Part shown: one piece after another, positions 4,557 to 57,245 of the stretch
How the letters are laid out: each line of letters opens with the position of its first letter
Numbering within the stretch: position 1 is the stretch's first letter
NCBI GenBank assembly: GCA_017644045.1
Contig: JAEPMI010000002.1
Location: 259,026 to 323,025 of the forward strand
Length of the DNA: 64,000 nt
Origin: Deltaproteobacteria bacterium
GTDB taxonomy: Bacteria > Myxococcota_A > Polyangia > Polyangiales > Houyiibacteriaceae
Direction: 5' to 3'
Notes under the pieces: model-generated
What the model saw: the letters and a program-made list of their open reading frames with translations, nothing else
What the model was told of the DNA's origin: nothing
Database searches by the model: none
Program-made: the position numbers and the translations under genes

Positions 4557-6977
4557 GTGCGGGGGTTGGCGCTGGGGGTGCTTCTGGTGGGGGTGGTGAT
4601 CGCCATCGTCCGTCTGACGCCGACCCCGCGGGCCGGGAGTCGAGGGGCGGGGCGCCCCGTGGCGCCGCCTCCGGCGGGCCCGATCGAGCCGGTGGGTGAA
4701 GCCCTCATCTATCGGGCGCTGCTGATGCGCGAGCGCGGCGACGTCTACGGGGCGTACGCGCTGGGGCGAGCGGTGGCCTCGGGTGCCGCGGGTGAGGTCG
4801 CGGCCGAGCGCGCCCGCACCGAGCTCCTCTCGGAGCCGCCGCCGATGACGATCGAGCTCCCGCTCGACGGACGCTACGCGGAGGTTCGCTTCGACGCCGA
4901 GGGACGGGTGGAGGCGCTCGGCGACGACCAGCGCACGCTCTTCGATCTCGCGACCGGCGAGACGGTGCGCCACGTCGAGCGGCGGGCGCGAGAACCGGAG
5001 CGAACGAAGCGGGAGCCAGGACGCTCCCTCAAAGTGCGAACGAGCGAGGAGTGGCGCGCGCTACAGCAGCGCGACCGCGAGCGCGAGGGGCGCGACCTCC
5101 GCCTGATGGGGGACCGCGTACTGGTGTACGAGGGCAACGAGCGGGTCGCGACGATCGAGAGCCCCGACGAGACTCGCCTCACCGAAGCCGCGCTCTCCGC
5201 GGACGGGACCGTGATCTGCATGGGGAACCAGCAGGGCCAGGTGATCGTCCGGGACGTCGAAGGCGGCGACGCGCTCGTCGGCAAGCTGGGCGGAGCGATC
5301 ACCGCGGTCGTGGCCGCGCCGGCCAACGAAGAGGGCGAAGACGACGAAGGTCCCGCGTTCCTGGTGGGGACGTCCCGCGGAGAGGTGGCGCGCGTCACCC
5401 GTGGTCCCGAACGAACCCGCTGGGGCGAGCTGGTCGAAGGCGGGGGCGTGGTGGTCAGCCTTCGGATGCTCGCCCACGATGGGCCTCCGATCGTCTGGCT
5501 GGGCGCCGACGTCTCCCGCGCCATCGTGGCCGTCGACGCGAGGGGGGTGCTCCGCTGGGGGATGGAGGAGCGGCTCGGTGGACCGATGATCGACTCGTTC
5601 CTCGTGGCCCGCCGCGTGCTCGAATGGAAGCCCTCGATGCACCGCATCGGAGTGGCGCTCGATCCCGAGGGTGGCCGAGTCGCCGTGCTGAGAGACGACA
5701 CCCTCCGCGTGGTCGCGCTCGAGCCGGGGCTGCCCGTGTGCGCCGCACCGCCAGGCGATCGACGTGCCGTCGGCCGCGCGCGCGATGGCACGCGAGTGGT
5801 GGTCCGCGGAGACGAGGAGGTCGTGGTCTGCGACCTCGAGCGTCCGGGACGAGCGATCGCGACGTTCCCGACTCGCGAGCGACAGCGGCCGTTCGGCGGC
5901 CGCACCGAGCTCAGCGCCGACGGACGGCGGCTGGCGATCTCGCAGGACGCACGACTCCGGGTCTTCGACGTCGACTCGGGCGATCGCGTCGGCGACATCT
6001 CGGCCGAGTGGGGCGCGAAGCTCTCCGCCGACGGCGCCGTCGCGTTGGTCGACCACGACCTGGTGGCGGTCGAGAGCGGCCTGGCCATTCGACCCGGGTG
6101 CCTCGACGGAGACGCAGGACTCCGCGCGCTGTACGGCACGGACCTGATGGCTGCGTTCGAGGACGATCGGGTCGTCGTCTGCGAGCTGGACGAAGACGGG
6201 GACGAAGTCTTCCGAAGCGAGGCGTTCGACGGGCTCGACTCCATGGGCACCTCGGACGACGGGTCGCATCTGTGGGTGGGGAGCGAGGACGGCAAGGTTC
6301 GACTCTTCACCCTCCCGGGAGGAACGCTCGTGCGGACCCTCCATGCGGGGGAGAGTGGAGGACCGAGCGCGATCGTCGCGAACGGTGGTGGCTACGTCAT
6401 GACCGTGAGCGCAGAGGGCCGGCGACGACTCTTCGCGACCGAGACCGGCGAACGGGTCGTCGAGCGGGAGGCGCCGCCGGGGATGACGGACGGGCCGGGG
6501 ACATCGCCGGAGACGTTCACCGGGGACGGCGCGTACTACCTACGCATCGGCGGTGTCCGCGACCGAGCGCAGGAGCTCTGGGTGAGCGCGACCGGCGAGA
6601 AGGTCGAGCTCGAGGTGCCCGACGAGATCTACACGGAGGTCGAGGTCCGCGGCCACGCGGGTCCGCTCGGCGCCGGACCGGACGCCTGGGGGACGTCGGG
6701 ACATGGGACCGCGTTCTTCCGCGCGGATGCCGATGGGGTGCGAACGCTGGCTCGGGTGCGCCCGGGCCCGACGGCGATCGTGGGCGACGGACGCTTCCTG
6801 GTGTGGGTCGGGGACATGGTCCGCGTGGTGCCCGTCGGCACGAGCGGGCCCGACGCAGCGGAGCTCACCGCCCCGCTGACCAACCACCGCGTGTGCCGGG
6901 AGAGCTTCGATCCGGTCGTGGTGAAGCCGGCGGAGATCGACGATCCGATCTGGGCGCCTGACGCTTACTGCGACTGA
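4557..6977 (+). CDS. membrane-anchored WD40/beta-propeller repeat protein
   Basis: GTG start and N-terminal TM LALGVLLVGVVIAIV. Repeated WD40-like blades: SADGRRLAISQDARLRVFDVDSGD, SDDGSHLWVGSEDGKVRLFTLPGG, SADGTVICMGNQQGQVIVRDVEGG. Confidence 0.8.
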   Translation: MRGLALGVLLVGVVIAIVRLTPTPRAGSRGAGRPVAPPPAGPIEPVGEALIYRALLMRERGDVYGAYALGRAVASGAAGEVAAERARTELLSEPPPMTIELPLDGRYAEVRFDAEGRVEALGDDQRTLFDLATGETVRHVERRAREPERTKREPGRSLKVRTSEEWRALQQRDREREGRDLRLMGDRVLVYEGNERVATIESPDETRLTEAALSADGTVICMGNQQGQVIVRDVEGGDALVGKLGGAITAVVAAPANEEGEDDEGPAFLVGTSRGEVARVTRGPERTRWGELVEGGGVVVSLRMLAHDGPPIVWLGADVSRAIVAVDARGVLRWGMEERLGGPMIDSFLVARRVLEWKPSMHRIGVALDPEGGRVAVLRDDTLRVVALEPGLPVCAAPPGDRRAVGRARDGTRVVVRGDEEVVVCDLERPGRAIATFPTRERQRPFGGRTELSADGRRLAISQDARLRVFDVDSGDRVGDISAEWGAKLSADGAVALVDHDLVAVESGLAIRPGCLDGDAGLRALYGTDLMAAFEDDRVVVCELDEDGDEVFRSEAFDGLDSMGTSDDGSHLWVGSEDGKVRLFTLPGGTLVRTLHAGESGGPSAIVANGGGYVMTVSAEGRRRLFATETGERVVEREAPPGMTDGPGTSPETFTGDGAYYLRIGGVRDRAQELWVSATGEKVELEVPDEIYTEVEVRGHAGPLGAGPDAWGTSGHGTAFFRADADGVRTLARVRPGPTAIVGDGRFLVWVGDMVRVVPVGTSGPDAAELTAPLTNHRVCRESFDPVVVKPAEIDDPIWAPDAYCD

Positions 6978-6982
6978 GCCCT

Positions 6983-8077
6983 CTACACCGGAACCGAGCG
7001 GTCGAGCAGGCGGCCGAGCGCTTCGAGGGTCCGGATGTCCTCGGGCGACTCGGCGACGGCGAGGGCCGGAGCCTCGGGGTCGAAGGAGTCACGGAAGCGC
7101 GCCGCGGACTCGAGCGCGGCGCGCTGCGTGTCCGCGATGTGCTCGCGGAGCACACGAAGCTCCTCGGCCGCCGGTTGGAGCTCGCCCTCGGGGAGCTCCG
7201 GGCTGGCGCCGGCGAGCGGCGTGCTCGCACCGGGCTCCGAGAGGTAGGCGCGGTTGAAGAGGAAGAGGCTCGGCGTGCGGTGCCGCTCCGCGAGCTCGGA
7301 CGCCAGCGCGCGCGCATCGGCCAGCGCGGTGGTCGACGTGCTCGCGACGAGCGCGTAGCCGGTGGCCGGGTCGCGGAGGGTGGCGGCGGTGCTCTGGGCG
7401 CGTTCGAGGAAGCCCTCGCGCTGGTCGGCGAGGAGGTGGAAGAAGCCGAGGAGCTCGGCGGTGACCTCTTCGCCCGCGAGCTTGCCGAGCAGCTTCATCG
7501 CGGCGCGACCGCCAGCGCTGGCGAGCGACGCGAGCGAGCCCATGATCGAGTCGTCGGGCTCGAGGAAGAAGCGCAGCACTCCGTCGTCGAGGAAACGAGC
7601 GAGCTGATGTGGCGCGTCGAGGATCTCGAGCGCGGAGCGCGTGGGCGGGGTGTCGAGGACGACCAGATCGTGGTCGCCTTTGTCGAGCACGTCGTAGAGG
7701 CGCTCGGCCGCGACGTAGGCGTGGCTGCGCGCCAGGGTCTTGCTGAAAGCCTGGTAGACGCGGTTGCCGAGAATCGTCTCGCGCGCGTCCGGCTCGGCGA
7801 TGCGGCCCATGAGCGCGTCGTAGCTCGCCTTGGTGTCGAGCATCGCGGCCGAGAGGTTGGGCTCGTCGTCCACGACACGGATGGTGTCGTCGAGCCCGTC
7901 GAGGCCGAGTGCGTCCGCGAGCCTTCGCGCGGGGTCGATGGTGAGCACGAGCGCACGCCGCCCCTGACGGGCCGCGCGGAGCGCGAGGGCGGCCGCCGAG
8001 GTGGTCTTGCCGACGCCGCCGGGGCCGACACAGACCACCAGCCGGCGGTCGAGGAGCGCGTCGAGATGCACGCTCAC
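6983..8077 (-). CDS. ArsA/Get3-family ATPase (single NBD), second of tandem pair
   Basis: GTG at 8077 overlaps the upstream stop (GTGA). P-loop VCVGPGGVGKTT. LTIDPA and VVLDTPPT motifs typical of ArsA/Get3. The ORF-track N-terminal extension is Arg/Pro-rich and lies inside the upstream gene. Confidence 0.8.
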   Translation of the reverse strand: MSVHLDALLDRRLVVCVGPGGVGKTTSAAALALRAARQGRRALVLTIDPARRLADALGLDGLDDTIRVVDDEPNLSAAMLDTKASYDALMGRIAEPDARETILGNRVYQAFSKTLARSHAYVAAERLYDVLDKGDHDLVVLDTPPTRSALEILDAPHQLARFLDDGVLRFFLEPDDSIMGSLASLASAGGRAAMKLLGKLAGEEVTAELLGFFHLLADQREGFLERAQSTAATLRDPATGYALVASTSTTALADARALASELAERHRTPSLFLFNRAYLSEPGASTPLAGASPELPEGELQPAAEELRVLREHIADTQRAALESAARFRDSFDPEAPALAVAESPEDIRTLEALGRLLDRSVPV

Positions 8078-8970
8078 GACGCGCCTCCGAGGTGGGTCGC
8101 GAGCTGATGGAGATCGAAGGGCTCGAGCACCGGCAGTCGGAGGGTCGGGAGCTCCAGCTCCCTCTCCAAGCGATCCGCGATGGCGGTGGCACGCTCGTGG
8201 ACCGACTCGAGCCGGCGCGCTAGGGCGACCTCGGCATCCCAGCCCGCGCGCTCGAGCTCGGCGTAGCGCGCCCGCGTTGGCTCCGAGACCGGCGGCGCCG
8301 GGACGCGATTGATGAAGAGGCGCCCGAGCGGGACCGAGCCCTTCGCGCGAAGCGCGGCGTGGAGCTCTCGCGTCTCCTGGGCCGGCAGCTCGTCGGGGAG
8401 CGTCACGAGGTTCAGCGCCGTGCGCTCGTGGTCCGAGAGCAACGCGGTGAACCCTCGCAGCAGGCGGGCGAGCGGCCCGCGGGTGGCGAGGTCCGCGAAG
8501 ACCTCCGGCAGCGAGAGGAACATGAGCGCGTGACCGGTCGCGTCCAGGTCGACGAGCACCGGGTCCCAACGCGACTCGCCGCGCACGGTCGCCTCTTCGA
8601 GCCGCTCGAGCATTCGGAGGGTGACGACCTCGGACACGGCGGGTGCCGCGTGGAAGAAGCGACGAAGCGCATCGCCGCGAACGATGCGGCGCGCGAGCGC
8701 TCGCACCTTCGCGTGCTCCGCCACGTAGTCGACGAGCGCCTCGTCGAAGTCGATGTTCGCGGCGTGGACGCCGGGCGCGACCTCGGTCGGCTCATGGCCG
8801 ATGGCGGGCGCCTCGAAGACCGTGGCCATCGTGGCCCGATGACCGAGCTCCACCACCAGCGGACGCCGACCGGCGCGAGCCGCCGCGAGCGCGGAGGCGG
8901 CCACGACCGACGATTTGCCCACCCCACCCTTGCCGGTGAAGAGCTGGAGTCGTCGGGTCTCGGAAGTCAC
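8074..8970 (-). CDS. ArsA/Get3-family ATPase (single NBD), first of tandem pair
   Basis: GTG start. P-loop FTGKGGVGKSS. LVDLDATGHAL resembles the ArsA DTAPTGH signature. Confidence 0.8.
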   Translation of the reverse strand: MTSETRRLQLFTGKGGVGKSSVVAASALAAARAGRRPLVVELGHRATMATVFEAPAIGHEPTEVAPGVHAANIDFDEALVDYVAEHAKVRALARRIVRGDALRRFFHAAPAVSEVVTLRMLERLEEATVRGESRWDPVLVDLDATGHALMFLSLPEVFADLATRGPLARLLRGFTALLSDHERTALNLVTLPDELPAQETRELHAALRAKGSVPLGRLFINRVPAPPVSEPTRARYAELERAGWDAEVALARRLESVHERATAIADRLERELELPTLRLPVLEPFDLHQLATHLGGAS

Positions 8971-9013
8971 GCCCGGATGACCATGGCGCCAACTGCCCCG
9001 GCAGTCGAGCGCC

Positions 9014-9874
9014 TCAGAGCCAGACGAGGAACGCGGCCCAGCCGAGAATGCCGAACTGCGCGGCGGCCCCCTGGAGCAGGATGAAGCGCACGATGGCGGC
9101 GCGACCCCGGCCGAGACGGAAGGTGGCGATCACCGGGAGGGTGCCGAGCGCCGCGGCGAGCGGGTGCCCGAAGGCGCTCACGGCGCCGAGACCGGCGACG
9201 GTCAGCGCCAGGCAGTACCAGCGGCTGCTGTTCGGACCGAAACGAACCGGCCAGGTGCGCTTCTTCGCGCGCCGGTCGACGCCGACGTCGGGAAGCGCGG
9301 TGGCGACGTTGCCCGCGAAGCCGAAGAGGTAGGTGGCGAGCAGCGCGGGCCAGGGAAACGAGGCGAGCTCGCCCGCCTGGACCGCGAAGCCGAGGAGCGG
9401 GAGCACGACACCAACGCCGAGCGCCTGCAGGTGCTCGCCTCCGCCGCGGTAGGAGAGGCGCACGGGCGGGAAGCTGTACGCCCAGAGGAGCAAGCCCGCG
9501 GCGAGGGTCAGCGGCAGCACCCAGAACGAGCGCAGCACGCTCAGCACGACTCCCAGCGCGAGAAGCAACGCGTAGGCAGCGAGGGCGGCCCGCTTCAGCG
9601 CGGCCGGCCGGATCTTGCCCTCTTGAATGACGCCCGAGCCACCGCTGAACGGCGTCTTGGCGGAGCCACCGACGTCGTCGTCACGATCCGCGTAGTCGTT
9701 GCCCCAGACGATCACCAGCTGGTCGAGCACGGTCCAGGCGAAGAGCGCCACCAGCCAGGGCCAGCCGAAGCGCCCCGTGCGGTCGAAGGCGAGCGCCTGC
9801 CCGAGGAGCACGGGGCCGGCGAGGTTCGCCTGCGCCAGCGGGCGACTGGCCTGGATCCAGGAGCGGAGACTCAT
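9014..9874 (-). CDS. UbiA-family aromatic/polyprenyl prenyltransferase
   Basis: ATG at 9874. Polytopic membrane protein with two Asp-rich motifs (WGNDYADRDDD and LPDVGVDRRAKK). Lies 43 nt upstream of the ATPase pair on the same strand. Confidence 0.8.
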   Translation of the reverse strand: MSLRSWIQASRPLAQANLAGPVLLGQALAFDRTGRFGWPWLVALFAWTVLDQLVIVWGNDYADRDDDVGGSAKTPFSGGSGVIQEGKIRPAALKRAALAAYALLLALGVVLSVLRSFWVLPLTLAAGLLLWAYSFPPVRLSYRGGGEHLQALGVGVVLPLLGFAVQAGELASFPWPALLATYLFGFAGNVATALPDVGVDRRAKKRTWPVRFGPNSSRWYCLALTVAGLGAVSAFGHPLAAALGTLPVIATFRLGRGRAAIVRFILLQGAAAQFGILGWAAFLVWL

Positions 9875-9942
9875 GCGAGGGGGAGCATATCGCCGTCGAA
9901 CGGAAGGTCGACAAGGGCGAGGGCCGATGGGATAGCGGTCGG

Positions 9943-10566
9943 GTGGCGCGCTGGCTCGCATTCCTGGCTTCGGCGGTGCTCGGCGCCCGCGCCGTGGTCG
10001 ACGGGCTGCGCCTCCGCGGCGAGCTCCGCTACCATGCGCTCTTCGAGCGGAGCTTTCACCAGCCGCACCGTGTCGCGCGCGGCATGGCCGCGGTAGAGCA
10101 CGAGCTCGGGACCCTCGAGACGATCGCCGACGGGCTCCTGCTCGGCGCGGCGCTGACCTTCGGGGCGTGGCTCTTCCTGCGCTATCGAACGCTCGACGAG
10201 CGACGACGCGCACCGAGCTGGGCGCTCTGGTCCTGGCTCGTCCCCGGGCTGAACCTGGTCGAGCCATACCGGATCGTGCGCGAGGTCCACGCGGGGGGGC
10301 CGAGCGGCGCGACCGCACGCGCGCCGTGGCTGGTCTTCGGGTGGTGGAGCGGCTGGCTGCTCTACCTGGTGCTCCTGATCGGCGTGATCGCCGCCGAGGG
10401 TCGCGCGAGCGGCTACCTGAGCGCGGGCGAGCCGCTGAAGGCCTTCGAGCAGAGCGTGCTGGTCGCGCGGCTCGGCGTGGCTGTGGCGGCGGCGAGCCTG
10501 AGCGCGGCGGTGCTGGGGCTCGCGGTGGTCCTGACCACCGAGCGGCGCATCAGCGCGCGAGGTTGA
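9943..10566 (+). CDS. DUF4328-like membrane protein
   Basis: GTG start. WSWLVPGLNLVEPYRIVREV motif followed by W-rich TM segments, as in DUF4328 proteins. Confidence 0.6.
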   Translation: MARWLAFLASAVLGARAVVDGLRLRGELRYHALFERSFHQPHRVARGMAAVEHELGTLETIADGLLLGAALTFGAWLFLRYRTLDERRRAPSWALWSWLVPGLNLVEPYRIVREVHAGGPSGATARAPWLVFGWWSGWLLYLVLLIGVIAAEGRASGYLSAGEPLKAFEQSVLVARLGVAVAAASLSAAVLGLAVVLTTERRISARG

Positions 10567-11950
10567 GGTTCACGTACTCGTCCTCGCCCGTGACGTCGCG
10601 GACCAGGTGCGGCGCCATCCACGTCGGAATCGGAGGCCGGACGTCGGGGCTCGGGAGCTCCACCTCGGCCAGCACGAGCTCCCGGTCGAGGAACTCGTCC
10701 ACCACCCAGACCAGCGCGCCGTCGGGCACCGAGTAGCGACGCTTGTGAACCCGGCACCCTTCGGTCAGTGGCCACATCTGATCGAAGACCTCGGCGCTCG
10801 CCTCCTCTTCGACCTCGATCCGCTGGAGCCCCGATCCGCCCTTGATGGTGCGGAGTCGAGTGACGGTCCTTCCCTTGCGGACCTCACGGAGCCGCTCCCG
10901 GACCTTGTCGCCGGGGAGGTAGCCCTGCCGGAGCTCCTTCGAGGAGACCTTCGCGCCGCTGCCCGGGACCGGTTCCCCCTTGGCGAGAAAGGGCGGCAGC
11001 TGCTCGAGCAGGTACTTGCGCTCCGTCTCCGTCTGTCGCGCTCCGTCGAGAGCGCGCGCGAACCACTCGATCGAGTCGACGAGCGCGTCGAGCTGCTCGC
11101 CGAGGAACTCCGCTTCGAGCTCGCCGAACGCCCGCTCGAGCTCCGCGTCGGTGCCCTCCTGCAACGCGAGCACACCCGGGAGATGCGCGGGCTTCGCCTC
11201 GGCCGCCGCGGCCTTCAGGGTGGCCTGGAAGACGTGCATGTCCTGGATGTGGCCAAGGACGTCCTGCAGCCGCTTGCATCGCTTCACGATCGCGATCGCA
11301 CGCGCGTCGGACACCCGCGCGGGCTCGACCAGGTAGCGCAAACGCTTGGTGGCGATGCGCGCGGTGTGCAGCGGCTCCTGGTCGTCCACGCTGCGCGCGG
11401 CGGCGAGCAGGTCCGCGAGTGTAGCGACGTGTTCCCGGGCGAGGCCGGCGAGGACCGCACCATAGGTCGCGTCCTCGGTCACCAGCGACACGGTCGCGTG
11501 ACCCAGCGGGTCGCGCAGCTTCTGATCGAGCCTGGCGAAGCGCTTGCGCGCCTTCTTCACACCTCTCGTGCTCGCCGCGGCGAGCGTGGCTTCGAGGGAC
11601 TCGCGGAGCGAGTCGATGCCTGCCTTGGCGTCGACGCTGGCGATCGGCTTCGCGAGCCTCTCGAGGTGCTCGATCTGCACTTCGGTATCGCGCGCACCAC
11701 CGGTCCACTTCTGCAGCTCCTTGAACTGATCGCGCCGCTTCTTCTCGATCGCGTCACCCAGGTGCCGCTCGTGTGCGCGGGCCAGGCTGCGGAGCCGACG
11801 CACCGCCACGCGGAAGTCGTGCAGTGCTTCTTCGTCGCTCGGGTCGTCCATCCGAGCGCTGGCGGCGTTGGCCTCGTCGAGCAGGGAGAGCGCGATGCGC
11901 CGAGTGGCCTCGACCGCGGGTCGGAGGAGGAGGTCGTCGGGGAGTCCCAT
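10550..11950 (-). CDS. CHAD domain + CYTH (triphosphate tunnel metalloenzyme) domain protein
   Basis: N-terminal CHAD pattern (EALHDFRVAVRRLRS...TKRLRYLVE). C-terminal CYTH starts ERKYLLEQLP and ends LAEVELPS. ATG at 11950 preferred; an alternative GTG lies at 11977. Confidence 0.8.
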   Translation of the reverse strand: MGLPDDLLLRPAVEATRRIALSLLDEANAASARMDDPSDEEALHDFRVAVRRLRSLARAHERHLGDAIEKKRRDQFKELQKWTGGARDTEVQIEHLERLAKPIASVDAKAGIDSLRESLEATLAAASTRGVKKARKRFARLDQKLRDPLGHATVSLVTEDATYGAVLAGLAREHVATLADLLAAARSVDDQEPLHTARIATKRLRYLVEPARVSDARAIAIVKRCKRLQDVLGHIQDMHVFQATLKAAAAEAKPAHLPGVLALQEGTDAELERAFGELEAEFLGEQLDALVDSIEWFARALDGARQTETERKYLLEQLPPFLAKGEPVPGSGAKVSSKELRQGYLPGDKVRERLREVRKGRTVTRLRTIKGGSGLQRIEVEEEASAEVFDQMWPLTEGCRVHKRRYSVPDGALVWVVDEFLDRELVLAEVELPSPDVRPPIPTWMAPHLVRDVTGEDEYVNLNLAR

Positions 11951-12031
11951 CGTGCGGATGGTCCCCGTGACGACCACGCGTCACAAGCATTCGAATGTGA
12001 CAATTCCCGAGGCGCGGGAACGCAGAACCGA

Positions 12032-13168: not shown

Positions 13169-13936
13169 CTAGAACGCGGAGCGCGCACCCTCGAGGCCGA
13201 AGCCGAGGAGCTCCACGGTGTGGCCGCCGGCCTTGTCCCGGAACTTCACCATGCCCGTCACGGGCACGGCGGGGTGGTGCCAGACGTCGGCCTCGATCTG
13301 CTGGCCCGCGAACTCGAGGGTGGTCTCCGAACGGCGTGCGTCGGGGAAAGTGCCCGCCCTGACGGTCACCTCTTCGGGCTCGCCGCTCAGCGGTCCGGGA
13401 AAGAGCATCTGCAGCCACTGCGCGAGCACCGGCTGGTAGTTGGGCAGGAGCCGCTCCTGCACGTCTTCGCGAGGCTGCCCCTGCCGATGGAACGAGAGCG
13501 CGAGGAGCTCGACGTCATCGCCATTCGGTCGGACCTGCATGCGGACGTGGTTCTGGCGGTTGCCGCGGCGGTCGGTGACCTCGAACCACCAGGTGTCGTT
13601 CTGCCGGTCGACGAAGCGGTACTCGGTGGTTGACCGGGCGCCTTCGCGCCAGGTCACGCCGTAGCGAACCCACTGACCGATGGCGGGCGCGATCATCTCG
13701 GCGCCGTCTTCGGCGGGGTCGAAGAGGCGGCCCGGTTCTTCTGGTTCCGACTCCGACTCGGACGCCGACTCCGACTCGGACGCCGACTCCGACTCGGACG
13801 CCGACTCGGACGCCGACTCGGACGCCGACGCCGACGCCGACTCCGACTCCGACTCCGACGCCGACTCTTGGGCCGACTCCGACTCGCCGGAGCAGGCCAC
13901 GAGCAGCATCAGGATCCACGGCAGCGGCGCACGCAT
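13169..13936 (-). CDS. lipoprotein with (SE/SA)n linker, unknown function
   Basis: ATG at 13936. Lipobox LLVAC. About 40 aa of S-E/S-A repeats, then a globular domain. Confidence 0.75.
13747..13886. repeat. CCGACT/CCGACG/CGGACG hexanucleotide microsatellite (coding, in frame)
   Basis: Tandem hexamers are visible directly. They encode the SE/SA linker of the lipoprotein on the minus strand. Confidence 0.9.
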
Positions 13937-41122: not shown

Positions 41123-42022
41123 ATGACCAGCCGTTCCGTTCCTCAGAGCGCCCCCGTCGCGACCCTTCGTGACCTCGCCTCCCTCGCCAAGCCCCGCATC
41201 ACCCTGATGGTGGTCATCACGGCGGCAGGTGGGATGTTCCTGGCCCCAGGGGCGATCCCCCTGACGACGGCCCTGGTGATGCTGCTCACCACAGCGACCG
41301 TGGTGGCCGGCGCGAACTCGCTGAACTGCTGGCTCGAGCGCGACTCCGACCGCTTCATGCAGCGGACGATGGATCGCCCGCTGCCCGCCGGGCGGATGGA
41401 GCCGAAGGTCGCGATGGTCTTCGGTGCCTCGCTCGGCCTCCTCTCGGTGCCGGCGTTGACGCTTCTGGTGAACCCGACCACCGGTGCCCTCGGGGCGCTG
41501 GCGCTGGTCTCCTACGTCGCCGTCTACACGCCGATGAAGCAGCGCTCGTCGGTGGCGCTCCTGGTCGGTGCGATTCCGGGAGCTCTGCCCCCGCTGATGG
41601 GCTGGACCGCGACCACCGGCTCGATCGACGCGCCCGGCCTGGTCCTCTTCGGCATCCTCTTCTTCTGGCAGGTCCCGCACTTCCTCGCGATCTCGATCTA
41701 CCGCCAGAGCGAGTACGAGAAGGCTGGCCTCAAGACCCTCCCGGCAGAGCGCGGTCTGGGTGCCGCGAAGGCCCAGGCCTTCCTCTACACGGGCGCGCTC
41801 GTCGTCTGCACCGTGCTCCTCGCCTTCTTCCGCACCGCCGGCGTCATCTACCTCGCCGCGGCCGTCATCCTCGGCGCGCACTTCCTCTTCGTGGCCGCCC
41901 AGGGCTTCCGCATCGAAGAGCGCCCTGCCGTCGACAAGTGGGCCAGGAAGCTCTTCATCACGTCGCTCATCTACCTGACCGCGCTCTTCGCGGCGCTGAT
42001 GGTCGACGCCATCGTCCTCTGA
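41123..42022 (+). CDS. ctaB: protoheme IX farnesyltransferase (heme O synthase)
   Basis: UbiA-fold protein with NCWLERDSDRFMQRTMDRPLPAGR and YTPMKQRS motifs typical of CyoE/CtaB. Confidence 0.9.
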   Translation: MTSRSVPQSAPVATLRDLASLAKPRITLMVVITAAGGMFLAPGAIPLTTALVMLLTTATVVAGANSLNCWLERDSDRFMQRTMDRPLPAGRMEPKVAMVFGASLGLLSVPALTLLVNPTTGALGALALVSYVAVYTPMKQRSSVALLVGAIPGALPPLMGWTATTGSIDAPGLVLFGILFFWQVPHFLAISIYRQSEYEKAGLKTLPAERGLGAAKAQAFLYTGALVVCTVLLAFFRTAGVIYLAAAVILGAHFLFVAAQGFRIEERPAVDKWARKLFITSLIYLTALFAALMVDAIVL

Positions 42023-42024
42023 CG

Positions 42025-42579
42025 ATGCGCTGGCTCGCGCTGGTCTCGATCGCGCTGCTCGGCTGCTCGGAGCCGGAGCCGCCGCCGACCCTGCTGGAGG
42101 TGCCGGCGTTCGAGCTGACCAGCCAGGCGGGCGACGCCTTCGGCAGCGAGCAGCTCCAGGGCGAGGTGTGGATCGCCAACTTCATCTTCACCCGCTGCCC
42201 GACCATCTGTCCGCTGCTCACCAGCCAGATGAAGGGGCTCACGGACTCGCTCGCCGACACCCCCGTTCGCTTCGTCTCGTTCAGCGTGGACCCGGCGAAC
42301 GACACACCCGCGGTCCTGACCGAGTACGCCGAGCGCCACGGCGCGGACACCGCGCGCTGGACCTTTCTGACCGGCGACAACCACGCGCTCCAGGACGTCG
42401 TGGTCGAAGGCCTGCGCGTCCGCATGGGCAACGAACCGGACGAGACCGGCAACATCCTGCACGGCAGCCACTTCGTGCTGGTCGACGGGACCGGGACGAT
42501 CCGCGGCTACTACCAGTCGAACGTCGAAGGGCTCCGCGACATCGCGACGGACGCCCGGACGCTCACCGACTCGCACTGA
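42025..42579 (+). CDS. SCO1/SenC copper chaperone lipoprotein
   Basis: Lipobox ALLGC. FIFTRCPTICP CxxxC motif and the conserved H in GSHFVLVD. Confidence 0.9.
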   Translation: MRWLALVSIALLGCSEPEPPPTLLEVPAFELTSQAGDAFGSEQLQGEVWIANFIFTRCPTICPLLTSQMKGLTDSLADTPVRFVSFSVDPANDTPAVLTEYAERHGADTARWTFLTGDNHALQDVVVEGLRVRMGNEPDETGNILHGSHFVLVDGTGTIRGYYQSNVEGLRDIATDARTLTDSH

Positions 42580-42586
42580 GTCAGCA

Positions 42587-42893
42587 CCGAGCCGAACGCC
42601 GAACGTCGAGCGCCGCGTCGACGGAGTCGGTCAGGAGTCGGCCGTCGGGGCTCGGAGTCGGCCGTCGGAGTTCGGAGTCGGCCGTCGGAGTTCGGAGTCG
42701 GCCGTCGGAGTTCGGAGTCGGCCGTCGGAGTTCGGAGTCGGCCGTCGGAGTCGGCGTCGGCGTCGGCGTCGGAGTTCGGAGTCGGAGTTCGGAGTTCGGA
42801 GTCGGCCGTCGGCCGTCGGAGTCGGCCGTCGGAGTTCGGAGTTCGGAGTTCGGAGTTCGGGGTCGGAGTCGGAGTTCGGCGTTCGGCGTTCGG
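42587..42893. repeat. array A: ~40 tandem 6-7-nt units ending in TCGG (non-coding)
   Basis: Hand parse from 42621: spacers AG, CCG, AGT, CG or CGT, each followed by TCGG. The 20-mer GGAGTCGGCCGTCGGAGTTC is perfect four times at 42654-42733, with near copies on each side. Three opposite-sense CCGA units at 42587-42605 precede a short palindrome. Confidence 0.95.
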
Positions 42894-43130: not shown

Positions 43131-43374
43131 CCGAAGTCCGACACCGACTGCCGACTGCCGAACGCCGACTGCCGAGCGCCGACGCCGAACGCCGAACGCC
43201 GACTGCCGAACTCCGACGCCGAACGCCGACGCCGAACGCCGAACGCCGACTGCCGAACTCCGACGCCGAACGCCGACTACCGAACGCCGAGACCCGACGC
43301 CGAACGCCGACGCCGAACGCCGAGACCCGACGCCGAACACCGACTACCGAACGCCGACCACCGAGAGCCGACTA
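43131..43374. repeat. array B: 36 tandem 6-7-nt units beginning with CCGA (mirror image of array A, non-coding)
   Basis: Hand parse: CCGAACG, CCGACG, CCGACTG, CCGAACT, CCGAGAC and others. There is an exact 47-nt higher-order duplication (43179-43225 = 43226-43272). The array ends at the cpoB stop codon. Confidence 0.95.
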
Positions 43375-44979: not shown

Positions 44980-47304
44980 ATGAGCCCCCACACACCCCAA
45001 TGTGCTACCCTCGTCCCTCCTCCCCCGATGAGCAGATTCGACGCAGGTCCCGACGGTCCGGTCACCGGGGACACCGAGATCTGCGCGTTTCACGCCCTCG
45101 AATCGGTGATCGCGATGCTGGCGAATACCCGCCGGCTCCTCGCTCTCGAGGTGGGCGCGTTGGTGGGGATGGAGCTCTGCGAGCGAGCCCTCGAGGGGAA
45201 CGCCATCGGCACCCACGCGGTCCAGATCGACGTGATCGGCCATCTCCGGGTGACCCGGGCCATCCGGCCCGACGACGGAGGCCTGCTCGAGACGCTGAAC
45301 GCGTGGGAACGGGCCATCCACCCCCGCGGTCGGGAGCAGTTCCGGCGAGCGCTCCGGGACACCCCGGCCTCGCTCCAGGGCCAGGACCTGATGCTCTTCC
45401 TCCGGGACCGCTTCGCGGGCCTCCTCTACCCCATCGACCGGGTCTCGGCGCGGACCAGCCTGGCGGGGGCCATCGAGCTCGCCTCGCGGGAGGCAGCGCT
45501 CCTCGACACCGGTAAGCGCGAGCGCGTCGACCCGGACGCTCCGGACTTCGACGACCTCTCCACCAGCCGCGGCATCGGTCCGGCGAGCGTGGAGCACATC
45601 CTCTCCGGCCTCGACGACTCGGTCTTCATGAACGCCGAGACCCGTCTGCGGGTCGAGGCCTATGGAGGTCCTGGCGCCCCGGACTTCGCCGACCTCACCA
45701 CCGACGAAGTCACCAGCGAGGAGCCGCACTCGCTCGAGGTCGCGCTGCTGGGGCCCTCGCCGAGCGAGGCACCGGTCCGGCAGGTCGGCCAGTTCGAGAT
45801 CTTCGGTCGCCTCGGCGAGGGAGGCATGGCGGAAGCCCTCCTCGCGCGCCACGTCGACGGGGGCGCCCCCTTCGTGCTCAAGCGCCTCCTTCCGGAGGCC
45901 GCGGCGGACCCCAGCCTCCTGCGGATGTTCGAGGACGAAGCGCGCCTCGGTCTCTTCCTGGACCACGAGCACATCGCCCGGGTGCTCGAGTACGTCCCGG
46001 GACCGCAGCCCCTGATGAAGATGGAGTGGGCGCCCGGTCTCACGCTGGCGAAGCTGATGAAGCGCTCGCGCGAGGCGAGCACCCCCATCCCACTCGACGT
46101 GATCCTGCGGGTCGGTGACGCGGTCAGCTCTGCCCTCGCCTACGCCCATGGCGCGCGAGGGATGGACGGGCGCCCACTGCGCGTCGTCCACCGCGACGTG
46201 AGCCCGCAGAACGTGGTCCTCCAGTGGGACGGCCACATCAAGCTGCTCGACTTCGGCGTCGCCCGGAGCGCGGTTCAGGCCGAGCACTCGGAGGCCGGCG
46301 TCATCAAGGGCAAGTTCGCCTACATGGCGCCCGAGCAGTCGCTCGGCATGCCGCTCGACGACCGCGCCGACGTCTTCTGCGTGGGCATCTGCCTCTACGA
46401 GGCGCTGAGCGGCAAGCGCCTCTTCGACAGCGACGAGCGGTTGGCGGCGGTTCGCGCGCTGGCCGAGGGCCCGATCCCCGACATCCGCCGGCACCGGCCG
46501 GAAGTCAGCGAGGAGCTCGCGACCCTGGTGCGCCGCTGCCTGGCCTCCGACCCGAAGAACCGTCCGCACATGGACGAGCTCCACGACGAGCTCCAGGCCC
46601 TCCGCCGCCGGCACCGCGCCCGTCGTCAGTCCGTGGTCGACATCGTCCGGACCTACGAGCCCGGCTGGGAGGACTGGCGCCGCGCGCTCTCGCCCACCGA
46701 CCGGCCGACGATGGCGCCGCCCGGCCCGGCACGGGAGCGGGGCAAACGAACGGAAGAGGGCCTCCGCCCGATCCAGCCGCGGGGCCCGAGTCTCTGGACC
46801 CGCATGTGGCCCGCGCTGCTGCTGATCGCGTCGTTCGTAGTCGGTGCCGCCACCTATGCGCTCATCCGCAGCGCGACCGCCCCCGACCCGGTTCCGGATG
46901 TGCCGGCGCCGGTCGAGAGCAGCCCGGTATCGATGCCGGCGTCCGTAACCGACTCCGACTCCGACTCCGACGACCGAGAGCCGACCGCCGAAGCCGACTC
47001 CGAAAGTCGAGCGCCGACTGCCGACCACCGAGAGCCGACCGCCGAAGCCGATTCCGAGAGCCGAGCGCCGACCGCCGAGGCCGAGGACGCCACGGGCACC
47101 CTCCTCATCCGCACCCACCCCCGCGGCGCGCGCGTCACGCTGGACGGAGTCCGACTCCGCGGCCGAACCCCCGAGCGCTGGACGATCCCTGCCGGGCCGC
47201 ACCGCGTTCAGATCTTCCGCGTGGGACACCGGCCGGAGACCCGTCACATCGTGACGGAGCCCGACAGCGGGGGGATGCTCGACATCCGGCTCCGTCGGCG
47301 TTGA
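44980..47304 (+). CDS. Ser/Thr protein kinase with TM segment, acidic repeat linker and C-terminal PEGA domain
   Basis: GEGGMAEALLA, VLKRL, HRDVSPQNVV, DFGVAR and APEQ. TM LWTRMWPALLLIASFVVGAATYALI. PEGA-like GTLLIRTHPRGARVTLDG...GPHRVQIFRVGH. Start is uncertain (ATG 44980 or 45028); the ORF-track start overlaps pal. Confidence 0.85.
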   Translation: MSPHTPQCATLVPPPPMSRFDAGPDGPVTGDTEICAFHALESVIAMLANTRRLLALEVGALVGMELCERALEGNAIGTHAVQIDVIGHLRVTRAIRPDDGGLLETLNAWERAIHPRGREQFRRALRDTPASLQGQDLMLFLRDRFAGLLYPIDRVSARTSLAGAIELASREAALLDTGKRERVDPDAPDFDDLSTSRGIGPASVEHILSGLDDSVFMNAETRLRVEAYGGPGAPDFADLTTDEVTSEEPHSLEVALLGPSPSEAPVRQVGQFEIFGRLGEGGMAEALLARHVDGGAPFVLKRLLPEAAADPSLLRMFEDEARLGLFLDHEHIARVLEYVPGPQPLMKMEWAPGLTLAKLMKRSREASTPIPLDVILRVGDAVSSALAYAHGARGMDGRPLRVVHRDVSPQNVVLQWDGHIKLLDFGVARSAVQAEHSEAGVIKGKFAYMAPEQSLGMPLDDRADVFCVGICLYEALSGKRLFDSDERLAAVRALAEGPIPDIRRHRPEVSEELATLVRRCLASDPKNRPHMDELHDELQALRRRHRARRQSVVDIVRTYEPGWEDWRRALSPTDRPTMAPPGPARERGKRTEEGLRPIQPRGPSLWTRMWPALLLIASFVVGAATYALIRSATAPDPVPDVPAPVESSPVSMPASVTDSDSDSDDREPTAEADSESRAPTADHREPTAEADSESRAPTAEAEDATGTLLIRTHPRGARVTLDGVRLRGRTPERWTIPAGPHRVQIFRVGHRPETRHIVTEPDSGGMLDIRLRRR
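46949..47088. repeat. CCGAC-type microsatellite plus 54-nt duplication (coding)
   Basis: CCGACT x3, then two copies encoding REPTAEADSESRAPTA. Contains the 20-mer GCCGACCACCGAGAGCCGAC (47020-47039), identical to 43353-43372. Confidence 0.85.
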
Positions 47305-55907: not shown

Positions 55908-57245
55908 GTGAGACGACCCATGCGATTCCGACCCCACAACCTGGTCCCGTACCTCGCGGTGGTCGCCATGCTCGGCGGCTGCACGATTCACCACGTCCGC
56001 ACCACCGGCACGGTACGCGCCAGCGGCAGCGTACGTGTGACCACCCCCACCTACGTCACGGTCGCCGACGCACCGCCGCCCCTGAAGCCCGCCGTCCAGA
56101 CCCGACCGGCGGCGAGCGGGTCCGTGTGGATCGAAGGCCACTGGTCGTGGAACGGCGGCTGGGTCTGGGCCGATGGCCACTGGGATACTCCTCCGCAGCC
56201 CGGCTACGTGTGGGAGCCCCCCGTGTGCGTCGCCGTCGCGGACGGCGGCTACCAGTTCCACCGCGGGTACTGGCGACCGCAGAACCAGGAGCCGCCTGCG
56301 ATCTACCGGACCGACGGAACGATCCGAGTGCATGTCCGCCCCGCCGACGAGCCGGCTCGCGCCAACCGCGTGGTCGTGACCGCCCGTGAGCCTGCGCCGC
56401 GGGGTACCGTCGTCGTCACGTCCCGCGCGCCCGAGGGCAACTCCTCCTCCGTGACCGTCACGAGCCGCCCCGCCAACGGCAGCGCCACGGTCACCACCCG
56501 CCCCGCCAACGGTAGCGCCACGGTCACGACGCGGCCGGCGAACGGTGGCGCGACCGTCACCACGCGCCCGTCCAACGGTGGCGCGACCGTCACCACGCGC
56601 CCGTCCAACGGTGGCGCGACCGTCACCACGCGCCCGTCCAACAACGGCGGCGCCACGGTCCGCACCCGGCCCGGCGACAACACCGCGACCGCGACCACCA
56701 CCGTGCGACCCGCGTCCACCGCGCGTGGCAACAACGCCAGCGCCAACACCACCGTGCGACCCGCGTCCACCGCGCGTGGCAACAACGCCAGCGCCAACAC
56801 CACCGTGCGGCCCGCGTCCACCGCGCAGGGCAACAACGCCAGCGCCAACACCACCGTGCGACCCGCGTCCACCGCCCGCGGCAACAACGCCAGCGCCAAC
56901 ACCGCGGTCCGCCCTGCGTCGACGGCGCGCGGCTACAACGCCAGCGCCAACACCACCGTGCGGACCCCCGCCCCGAACGACAACCCGGGCATGCAGACCG
57001 GCGGCCCGCGCAGCTGCAGCCTCGCGGTCGCCGTCCTTCCGCGCAATGGTGTGCTGGTCATCCGCGGCTCGGGCCTCGCGGCCGCGACCGGCGTGATGAT
57101 CGGCTCGCAGCGGGTGCCCCTCCTCGACAAGCGAGACGACCGCGTCCGTGCGCGCGTTCAGGGCCGCAACCACGGCGGCAGTGTCCGCGTGCTCTTCGGC
57201 AACGACCGCGAGGAGTGCGGCTCGCTCCGCATCACCGGTCGCTGA
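55908..57245 (+). CDS. lipoprotein with YXWGXW-type motif, two tandem-repeat families and an IPT/TIG-like C-terminal domain
   Basis: Lipobox MLGGC. WIEGHWSWNGGWVWADGHW. Six 11-aa and five 17-aa repeats. Confidence 0.8.
   Translation: MRRPMRFRPHNLVPYLAVVAMLGGCTIHHVRTTGTVRASGSVRVTTPTYVTVADAPPPLKPAVQTRPAASGSVWIEGHWSWNGGWVWADGHWDTPPQPGYVWEPPVCVAVADGGYQFHRGYWRPQNQEPPAIYRTDGTIRVHVRPADEPARANRVVVTAREPAPRGTVVVTSRAPEGNSSSVTVTSRPANGSATVTTRPANGSATVTTRPANGGATVTTRPSNGGATVTTRPSNGGATVTTRPSNNGGATVRTRPGDNTATATTTVRPASTARGNNASANTTVRPASTARGNNASANTTVRPASTAQGNNASANTTVRPASTARGNNASANTAVRPASTARGYNASANTTVRTPAPNDNPGMQTGGPRSCSLAVAVLPRNGVLVIRGSGLAAATGVMIGSQRVPLLDKRDDRVRARVQGRNHGGSVRVLFGNDREECGSLRITGR
56451..56651. repeat. 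33-nt tandem repeat x6 (coding, TVTTRP[AS]NG[SG]A)
   Basis: Units 56550-56582 and 56583-56615 are identical. Earlier units differ mostly at synonymous sites. Confidence 0.9.
56697..56951. repeat. 51-nt tandem repeat x5 (coding, TTVRPASTARGNNASAN)
   Basis: Units 56697-56747 and 56748-56798 are identical. Later units diverge. Confidence 0.9.

Follow-up and report, generated by a model that had tools for sequence, protein, structure and literature searches.

A distant myxobacterial BagA/BagB-type ATPase pair encoded beside a MenA-like prenyltransferase of the UbiA superfamily

What are two tandem ArsA/Get3-type ATPase genes doing next to a gene for a membrane prenyltransferase? This question is raised by a 64,000-nt stretch of DNA from a Deltaproteobacteria bacterium of the Polyangiales (contig JAEPMI010000002.1, positions 259,026 to 323,025), which is called the window below. 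Its GC content is about 70%, and the three genes in question lie close together on the minus strand between window positions 9874 and 6983. An initial annotation, made from the letters alone, had read them as an operon of a UbiA-family enzyme and two different half-ATPases, and had named no characterised system of this composition. Our analysis indicates that the two ATPases are very probably distant relatives of a structurally solved mycobacterial pair, BagA and BagB (Rv3679/Rv3680), and that within one clade of Polyangia their genes are neighbours of this prenyltransferase gene in many genomes.

The first gene (9874-9014, ATG start) encodes a UbiA-superfamily membrane prenyltransferase of 286 aa that is the same in length and sequence as public protein P0001. 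Its TGA stop at 9016-9014 is separated by a 43-nt spacer (8971-9013) from the GTG start, at 8970, of the gene for the first ATPase (298 aa, 8970-8074), referred to here as BagA-like. The gene for the second, BagB-like ATPase (364 aa, 8077-6983) also starts with GTG and overlaps its predecessor by the four nucleotides GTGA (8074-8077), the TGA stop occupying 8076-8074 and the GTG start 8077-8075. This overlap is consistent with translational coupling of the two ATPase genes. The coordinates thus confirmed the three same-strand genes, the 43-nt gap and the overlap that had been described before, and added the strand, which had been left unstated. In all three genes the GC content was 0.88-0.92 at third and 0.49-0.53 at second codon positions, which is typical of real genes, and the BagB-like product is identical to the NCBI-annotated protein P0121 (364 aa). 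Public automatic calls place the BagA-like start 16 codons later (window 8923-8970), giving a protein of 282 aa (P0241, P0243, P0246 and P0247). The GTG at 8970 is the better start, because the later one would cut off the Walker A motif GKGGVGKS and because no other start codon lies between 8970 and the preceding in-frame stop.

Both ATPases matched the Pfam family ArsA_ATPase (1e-23 and 4e-23). Among the NCBIfam models, the product of the first gene was matched best by BagA (NF053622, 116 bits, against 33 bits for the BagB model) and that of the second by BagB (NF053621, 230.5 bits over residues 10-357, against 37 bits for the BagA model). Both scores miss the equivalog cut-offs, which are 400 bits for BagA and 521 bits for BagB in models built on mycobacterial sequences. 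The same division of the two proteins was obtained from structures. A sequence search of the PDB paired the first product with chain 6bs3_A (6e-25) and the second with chain 6bs3_B (2e-51, residues 10-361), while ArsA and Get3 ranked next with 1e-21 or weaker. The AlphaFold model of the BagA-like protein (pLDDT 89) had 6bs3_A as its top fold match with a TM score of 0.85, and that of the BagB-like protein (pLDDT 82) had 6bs3_B with a TM score of 0.73. After 6BS3 came dozens of Get3/TRC40 structures, and ArsA was found only from the 39th to the 44th place. Identity of the window proteins to the 6BS3 chains was 28-34% in the fold-search alignments. The PDB title of 6BS3 is 'ADP-bound bacterial Get3-like A and B in Mycobacterium tuberculosis'.

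Since each window ATPase finds its best match, in sequence as well as in predicted fold, in the corresponding subunit of the solved Rv3679/Rv3680 heterodimer, the two distinct single-domain ArsA/Get3-fold proteins very probably form a heterodimer, as had been suggested before. Across the N-terminal halves their mutual identity is only about 31%, and the duplication that gave rise to them must therefore be ancient. Judged from profile scores and structural models, we consider it very probable that the gene pair encodes a distant myxobacterial Get3-like ATPase of the BagA/BagB type. The pair is a new member of a known and structurally characterised family with NCBIfam models for both subunits, and to this extent the initial annotation was mistaken in finding no characterised system; the association with UbiA lies outside the system as described. 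The nearest named relatives are Sandaracinus and metagenome-assembled genomes of Sandaracinaceae, and the source organism is accordingly an uncultured member of the class Polyangia in the Myxococcota. A Sandaracinus protein, P0123, is 83% identical to the BagB-like protein and is named 'gliding motility protein' by NCBI; no literature supporting this name was found.

Comparison with the M. tuberculosis proteins (6BS3, 6BS4 and 6BS5) showed further common features. In both organisms the A gene is followed directly by the B gene with overlapping stop and start codons, the A subunit has a lysine-containing GKGG and the B subunit a lysine-less GxGG, BagB carries TIDPA and DTPP motifs, and metalloid-binding cysteines and CxxC are absent. 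They differ in that the window BagA-like protein has DLDATGH where M. tuberculosis BagA has DAPPTG. They differ also in their surroundings: the window pair belongs to Myxococcota, is linked to UbiA and has DUF4328 and CHAD genes nearby, whereas Actinomycetota loci have DUF3107, HD, Mrp and other genes and no UbiA.

All the motifs quoted in the initial annotation were found in their places. The BagA-like protein has GKGGVGKS at residues 13-20 and DLDATGH at 141-147 and is without a DPA switch I; the BagB-like protein has GPGGVGKT at 18-25, a TIDPA switch I and DTPPT at 142-146. The corresponding Walker A motifs of M. tuberculosis are GKGGTGKS in BagA and GAGGVGKT in BagB. Across Myxococcota and Actinomycetota, BagA always has GKGGxGK[ST] and carries V-E-L/V-G/D in place of the DPA switch I, and the signature lysine is missing from every BagB (GPGG, GVGG or GSGG), whereas T-I/V-DPA and DTPPT are kept there. 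The proline at position 19 is invariant in a 20-protein BagB alignment, A1, assembled from protein-search hits. It counts against this pattern that our genome scan retrieved BagB loci by the pattern GPGGVGKT, which biases its counts of BagB Walker A motifs; the lysine-less motif was also present in the protein-search hits and in the BagB genes found via UbiA. In deviant-Walker-A ATPases of the MinD/Get3/ArsA class the signature lysine reaches across the dimer to the nucleotide of the partner. The predicted consequence is an asymmetric pair. The BagB site, with its own switch I aspartate and the BagA lysine in trans, would be complete and catalytic. The BagA site looks degenerate or regulatory, because BagB (GPGG) supplies no lysine and BagA has no DPA.

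Could the pair nevertheless belong to another branch of this ATPase class? The most familiar candidate is a split ArsA, the ATPase of the arsenite/antimonite efflux pump. The Pfam family is the same, ArsA likewise combines two homologous halves in a pseudo-heterodimer, DLDATGH of the BagA-like protein resembles DTAPTGH of ArsA, and many public annotations call the homologues 'arsenite-transporting ATPase'. ArsA is, however, a single fused polypeptide with three metalloid-binding cysteines that is encoded together with arsB and arsD, and none of this holds for the window pair. Here there are two separate single-domain proteins, which reach only 57.4 and 58.8 bits on TIGR04291 against a cut-off of 650. 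With no cysteine in the BagA-like protein and one in the BagB-like protein (Cys16, just before the P-loop) a metalloid triad is impossible, and the fold search placed ArsA structures far behind 6BS3 and Get3. ArsB, ACR3, ArsC, ArsD and ArsR were absent from the Pfam-annotated genes within about 10 kb on each side, the rest of the 64-kb window not being scanned, and no ars genes were seen in the related loci inspected. The scores, the cysteines and the context make an efflux-pump ATPase extremely improbable and effectively refute it; the initial annotation, which had noted the lack of arsB, arsC, arsD and arsR nearby and doubted a classical Ars pump, was right within these limits. It had also named a ParA/MinD-type origin as an outcome that would speak against a Get3-like pair. 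Positioning ATPases of this type, or an anti-phage defence pair, would account for weak P-loop-level matches to the ParA, MinD, CbiA and BcsQ models and for weak PADLOC matches to mad8 and PDC-M28B (17-26 bits). All of them are confined to the P-loop region at the N-terminus and miss the cut-offs by far, the best full-length matches are BagA and BagB, and neither UbiA nor the DUF4328 protein has a PADLOC match. We regard this reading as very improbable and effectively refuted as well.

Get3 itself comes closer. A true bacterial analogue would target tail-anchored proteins in general to an insertase, with UbiA being irrelevant, and after 6BS3 the best structures for both models were indeed those of Get3/TRC40, cargo-bound ones included (TM 0.6-0.73). 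The window proteins share with Get3 the deviant Walker A fold of the SIMIBI class, including a helical subdomain; this subdomain is present in both models and aligns to that of Get3, and in the BagB-like model it contains a low-confidence loop (residues 174-187) where Get3 has a lid-like insert. Get3 forms a dimer with ATP sandwiched at the interface. That dimer, however, is a homodimer held by CxxC-bound zinc, with a methionine-rich groove and with Get1, Get2 and Get4 as partners, whereas the window encodes two different subunits and no receptor genes. CxxC is found in neither protein, methionines number only 3 and 4, which makes a methionine-rich groove improbable, and scores on TIGR00345 (GET3_arsA_TRC40) were 92 and 80.1 bits against a cut-off of 135. 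No insertase gene is a conserved neighbour, yidC being near the pair only in Pseudenhygromyxa and in none of about 160 other loci, and deletion of the genes in M. tuberculosis by Hu et al. (2019) reportedly gave no obvious growth defect. Get3-like proteins of several bacterial groups are listed in a review, which emphasizes that targeting of tail-anchored proteins has been demonstrated for none of them (PMC6593721). A general targeting factor is on these grounds an improbable answer to the question.

The prenyltransferase was examined in the same way. It scored 73.6 bits on Pfam PF01040 (gathering score 34.2; 2e-20), has both Asp-rich motifs (NDYADRDDD at residues 59-67 and DVGVD at 196-200) and contains at least five membrane-spanning stretches by hydropathy. 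Its best NCBIfam hits were to MenA, 1,4-dihydroxy-2-naphthoate polyprenyltransferase, with 76.6 bits against a cut-off of 264 for NF004751 and 35.3 against 102 for TIGR00751; it falls short of all the MenA equivalog cut-offs by a factor of 3 to 10. The nearest solved structure by profile was chlorophyll synthase, at only 1.6e-08. We found 509 homologues, mostly from Myxococcota, and from Myxococcota wherever the source names an organism. They are publicly labelled MenA, with which they have the UbiA fold and the two Asp-rich motifs in common, and are distinguished from it by their sub-cut-off scores and by invariant motifs of their own, FSGGS and YRGxGE; a further invariant motif is ALPD. On this evidence the enzyme is a member of a MenA-like, non-canonical subfamily, which we named UbiA1. 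The analysis thus corrects several common mis-annotations, namely the public names arsenite-transporting ATPase, gliding motility protein and MenA, and the late BagA start.

To what extent are these genes neighbours elsewhere? A BagB-centred scan with one genome per species gave 80 loci, 21 of Myxococcota type and 59 from Actinomycetota. A BagA-type gene lay directly upstream of BagB in 68 of the 80 (17/21 in Myxococcota and 51/59 in Actinomycetota). Among 83 homologous pairs from other organisms, the A and B genes overlapped by 4 nt in 61 and by 1 nt in a further 9. Because the 4-nt overlap recurs so often, the coupling of BagA and BagB cannot be put down to chance. Seven loci from Solirubrobacterales (L043, L051, L052, L068, L070, L079 and L086) have BagB without an upstream BagA-type gene and contain only a weak (about 30 bits) ArsA/ParA-like open reading frame on the opposite strand; BagB may work alone there or with a distant partner. 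Actinomycetota BagAB genes have DUF3107, HD phosphohydrolase, Mrp, response regulator, O-methyltransferase, PHP, PdtaS and ETF genes as neighbours. These were considered as a hint to function and rejected, as they form an unrelated synteny block in which none of the genes suggests a role in membrane lipids.

Linkage of the pair to UbiA1 was looked at from both sides. Starting from BagB, UbiA1 was adjacent in 3 of the 21 Myxococcota loci (L014, L019 and L024). A UbiA-centred scan of metagenomes gave 80 loci, among which 26 of the subfamily had at least 1.2 kb of sequence on both sides; BagA-BagB adjoined UbiA1 in 10 of these 26, and in 8 of 13 among the highest-scoring. In a neighbour-joining tree of UbiA the clade of the window contained 22 linked and 8 clearly unlinked loci, with linked loci in every sub-branch, and in the sister clade none of the 10 determinable loci was linked. 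In the BagB tree all UbiA-linked BagB proteins fell into one 'Polyangia-type' clade, and the topology broadly mirrored that of the UbiA tree. Other Myxococcota BagB proteins (from Archangiaceae and others) grouped with the Actinomycetota type. The broad agreement of the two trees makes the linkage of UbiA1 with BagAB look ancestral to the clade and mostly retained. The neighbourhood comparison called for by the initial annotation therefore shows that the three genes occur together in many genomes of one Polyangia clade, and the outcome that it had named as refuting, a lack of co-conservation in other genomes, did not arise.

The order of the genes varies from locus to locus. The commonest arrangement is head-to-head, with BagA and BagB transcribed away from UbiA1 (<BagB <BagA | UbiA1>), and it is found also in the cultured Pseudenhygromyxa sp. 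WMMC2535. In such loci 111-232 nt lie between the start-proximal motifs of the two genes, so that the divergent region itself measures from a few tens of nucleotides to about 150 nt. The co-directional order UbiA1, BagA, BagB was found in the window, in its close relatives L007 and L093 and in an unrelated 9.07-Mb genome (L177). The latter has a gap of 2 nt and an overlap of 1 nt, and its UbiA has 56% identity with that of the window and scores 413 bits on the subfamily profile. In a further locus (L176) a DUF2341/laminin-G gene stands between BagA and UbiA1.

The arrangement in the window can be related to that of another locus. Divergently from UbiA lies a gene for a DUF4328 membrane protein of 207 aa (9943-10566, plus strand; Pfam PF14219, 6.5e-17) with four hydrophobic segments by hydropathy. 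In locus L009, where UbiA1 is 59% identical to that of the window, the order is <BagB <BagA <DUF4328 | UbiA1>, with DUF4328 at L009 5380-5958. In both loci genes for a 3-hydroxyacyl-CoA dehydrogenase and a protein kinase lie 3' of BagB. Because these flanking genes keep their position, the two loci appear to be related through an inversion of the unit formed by the divergent DUF4328 and UbiA1 genes, and consequently the first gene of the BagAB unit is DUF4328 in L009 and UbiA in the window. The 68 nt between the two divergent genes of the window (9875-9942) are a putative bidirectional promoter region, from which UbiA, BagA and BagB would be co-transcribed in one direction and DUF4328 in the other. 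That adjacency survives such rearrangements argues for selection on the linkage or for shared regulation.

A different kind of variation was seen in one sub-clade around the glyoxalase II gene gloB (TIGR03413, 216.7 bits against 200.8). GloB is convergent to BagB in L100 (3-518), L102 (230-1003) and L103 (53-805), and in L108, L114, L120 and L124 it lies directly upstream of UbiA1 with no BagAB present. It looks as if the BagAB pair is present or absent between two fixed neighbours, GloB and UbiA1.

Is the ATPase, then, tied to the prenyltransferase in its function, or are the genes neighbours by descent only? As the three genes are inherited as a linked module in one Polyangia clade, UbiA1 is the most likely thing for the ATPase to serve in these organisms. 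We regard a functional tie between the BagAB-type ATPase and UbiA1 as an evenly balanced proposition, and any particular version of that tie as unlikely when taken singly. Several observations weigh against it, and most of them would follow if BagAB were a housekeeping or stress ATPase as in Actinomycetota and its adjacency to UbiA were inherited synteny without functional coupling. BagAB stands without UbiA in all 59 Actinomycetota loci, where it has conserved but unrelated neighbours of its own, and in the other Myxococcota lineages of BagB. The 8 clearly unlinked UbiA1 loci lie inside the linked clade, and the occurrence of the GloB-UbiA1 neighbourhood with or without BagAB between the two means that UbiA needs no BagAB next door. 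Simple vertical descent would likewise produce UbiA and BagB trees that agree; the linked loci are not independent samples, several of them being close relatives, and local rearrangement of an inherited block is an alternative source of the persistent adjacency. As for the window, a scan of 6700-10700 revealed neither a terminator-like nor a sigma-70-like site; such a scan is uninformative at 70% GC and so neither supports nor refutes an operon. Moreover, the sub-cut-off NCBIfam scores mark the ATPases as distant homologues, for which the same function as that of the mycobacterial pair is not assured.

What speaks against synteny without coupling is the depth and the tightness of the association. 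Adjacency spans deep branches, with identities down to about 45% for UbiA and about 50% for BagB. It has been kept through at least four local arrangements, including an inversion and gene insertions. In the window and in L177 the three genes run in one direction with little space between them, and in most other loci UbiA1 and the pair share a very short divergent region. We therefore consider uncoupled descent possible without expecting it. The adjacency to a membrane enzyme that the initial annotation had described holds for one Polyangia clade, where it is conserved, and fails for the 59 Actinomycetota loci and the other Myxococcota BagB lineages, from which it is absent.

The mechanism that we consider most likely would be as follows. 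The two translationally coupled genes would give rise to an obligate BagA-BagB heterodimer that sandwiches ATP, with one catalytic site (in BagB, completed by the BagA lysine) and one degenerate site (in BagA). Binding and hydrolysis of ATP would close and open the dimer, remodelling the helical subdomains as Get3 and ArsA do, and would thereby alter a helical surface to which a hydrophobic partner is bound. That partner would be connected with UbiA1 in this lineage. It could be the enzyme itself, BagAB then assisting its insertion, assembly or activity, or else the prenylated substrate or product of UbiA1, which BagAB would handle. More generally, BagAB ATPases might be devoted to assisting isoprenoid or quinone enzymes of the membrane at the expense of ATP; in Polyangia they would dock on, insert or activate UbiA1, or extract or hand over its prenylated product. 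We put this generalisation forward as a speculation with little expectation of its being correct in this form. Targeting of tail-anchored proteins and handling of prenylated lipids, which had been suggested earlier, gained no support from our analysis and are hypotheses only.

For the mycobacterial proteins there is some information on function. BagAB is the subject of two primary papers, one by Hu et al. (2019, J Bacteriol 201:e00159-19) and the other by Whitaker et al. (2020, J Bacteriol 202:e00202-20). The structure of the heterodimer was reportedly judged there unlikely to transport anions, intact ATP-binding motifs are said to be required in both subunits, and BagA reportedly pulled down fatty-acid and mycolic-acid enzymes. 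PMC10597346 describes a glycerol/nitric-oxide phenotype of mycobacterial bagAB mutants, and transposon insertions in the M. smegmatis homologues that lead to tolerance to killing by citrate. PMC12216072 reports altered survival of Rv3679/Rv3680 mutants in streptomycin and rifampicin and describes the substrate as unknown. A full-text search for literature joining UbiA, prenyltransferase, ArsA and gene cluster found no paper. Work on an ATPase that has no known client usually starts from a partner conserved beside it in the genome, and here that partner is a membrane prenyltransferase in a deep myxobacterial clade. The association of BagAB with UbiA1 is thus a concrete lead to a client, and the cluster is present in a cultured organism, Pseudenhygromyxa sp. 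WMMC2535. Should the generalisation be true, the same kind of client would explain the respiratory, envelope and stress phenotypes of mycobacterial bagAB mutants, and a first client and function would be given to a family that is widespread in Myxococcota and Actinomycetota.

Other genes near the cluster were also considered as possible members of the module. DUF4328 is adjacent in L001, L007 and L173, in addition to its position between BagA and UbiA in L009. A CHAD-domain protein is encoded at window 10550-11977 (minus strand); CHAD genes are within a few kb of the cluster in L007 and L177 too, and L009 has a CYTH gene. Proteins of polyhydroxyalkanoate (PHA)-granule regions are encoded near the cluster in L104 and L177. 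These neighbours may reflect a loose synteny of polyphosphate- or granule-associated genes. CHAD and DUF4328 were rejected as general members of the module, since they occur only in the sub-clade of the window and in a few relatives. A connection of glyoxalase II with BagAB was tempting in view of a reported link between bagAB and methylglyoxal; it was rejected because GloB is convergent, tracks UbiA and was not found in the Actinomycetota loci.

The same was done for YidC, to which Get1 is related. In Pseudenhygromyxa sp. WMMC2535 BagB is followed, about 3 kb downstream, by a yidC-yidD-rnpA-jag operon (L175 10612-12704). When its YidC was used as a phmmer query, none of about 160 other loci gave a match, and the proximity was rejected as coincidence.

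Further genes of the UbiA family were observed. A paralogue, which we called UbiA2, is located 1-5 kb from UbiA1-BagAB in about 8 of 14 well-flanked linked loci and was not found in the window. It is present at L009 8773-9729, L104 6419-7420, L176 11886-12833 and L177 10608-11585, and also in L014, L096, L097, L099, L106 and L113. UbiA2 proteins share 48-56% identity among themselves and about 30% with UbiA1, and have low scores on the MenA and ChlG models. The window contains a separate UbiA-family gene at 41123-42022 (plus strand) with a Pfam score of 198.6 bits, higher than that of UbiA1. It is followed and overlapped by a SCO1/SenC gene. The two span 41123-42579 (plus strand) and, to judge from this context, probably encode haem O synthase and a copper chaperone for cytochrome oxidase.

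Repeats were noted in other parts of the window. Two arrays of about 250 nt made up of degenerate heptamers (TCGGAGT-like and CCGACGC-like) occupy 42620-42893 and 43139-43372, in the intergenic region between the SCO1/SenC gene and a TPR/YfiO-like gene. They are inverted relative to each other, with arms of up to 126 nt that are 75% complementary, and flank a less GC-rich core of about 245 nt. Because of the period of 7 they are unlikely to be coding. A similar heptamer array was found near 47.0 kb (46961-47085). Tandem repeats with periods of 12, 18 and 30 nt, rich in GAC and TCC, are present at 13746-13886, and repeats with periods of 33, 51, 66 and 99 nt at 56454-56967, in an open reading frame with weak RHS-repeat and biotin-lipoyl matches. 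The periods in these last two regions are multiples of 3, and the repeats probably encode repetitive low-complexity protein segments.

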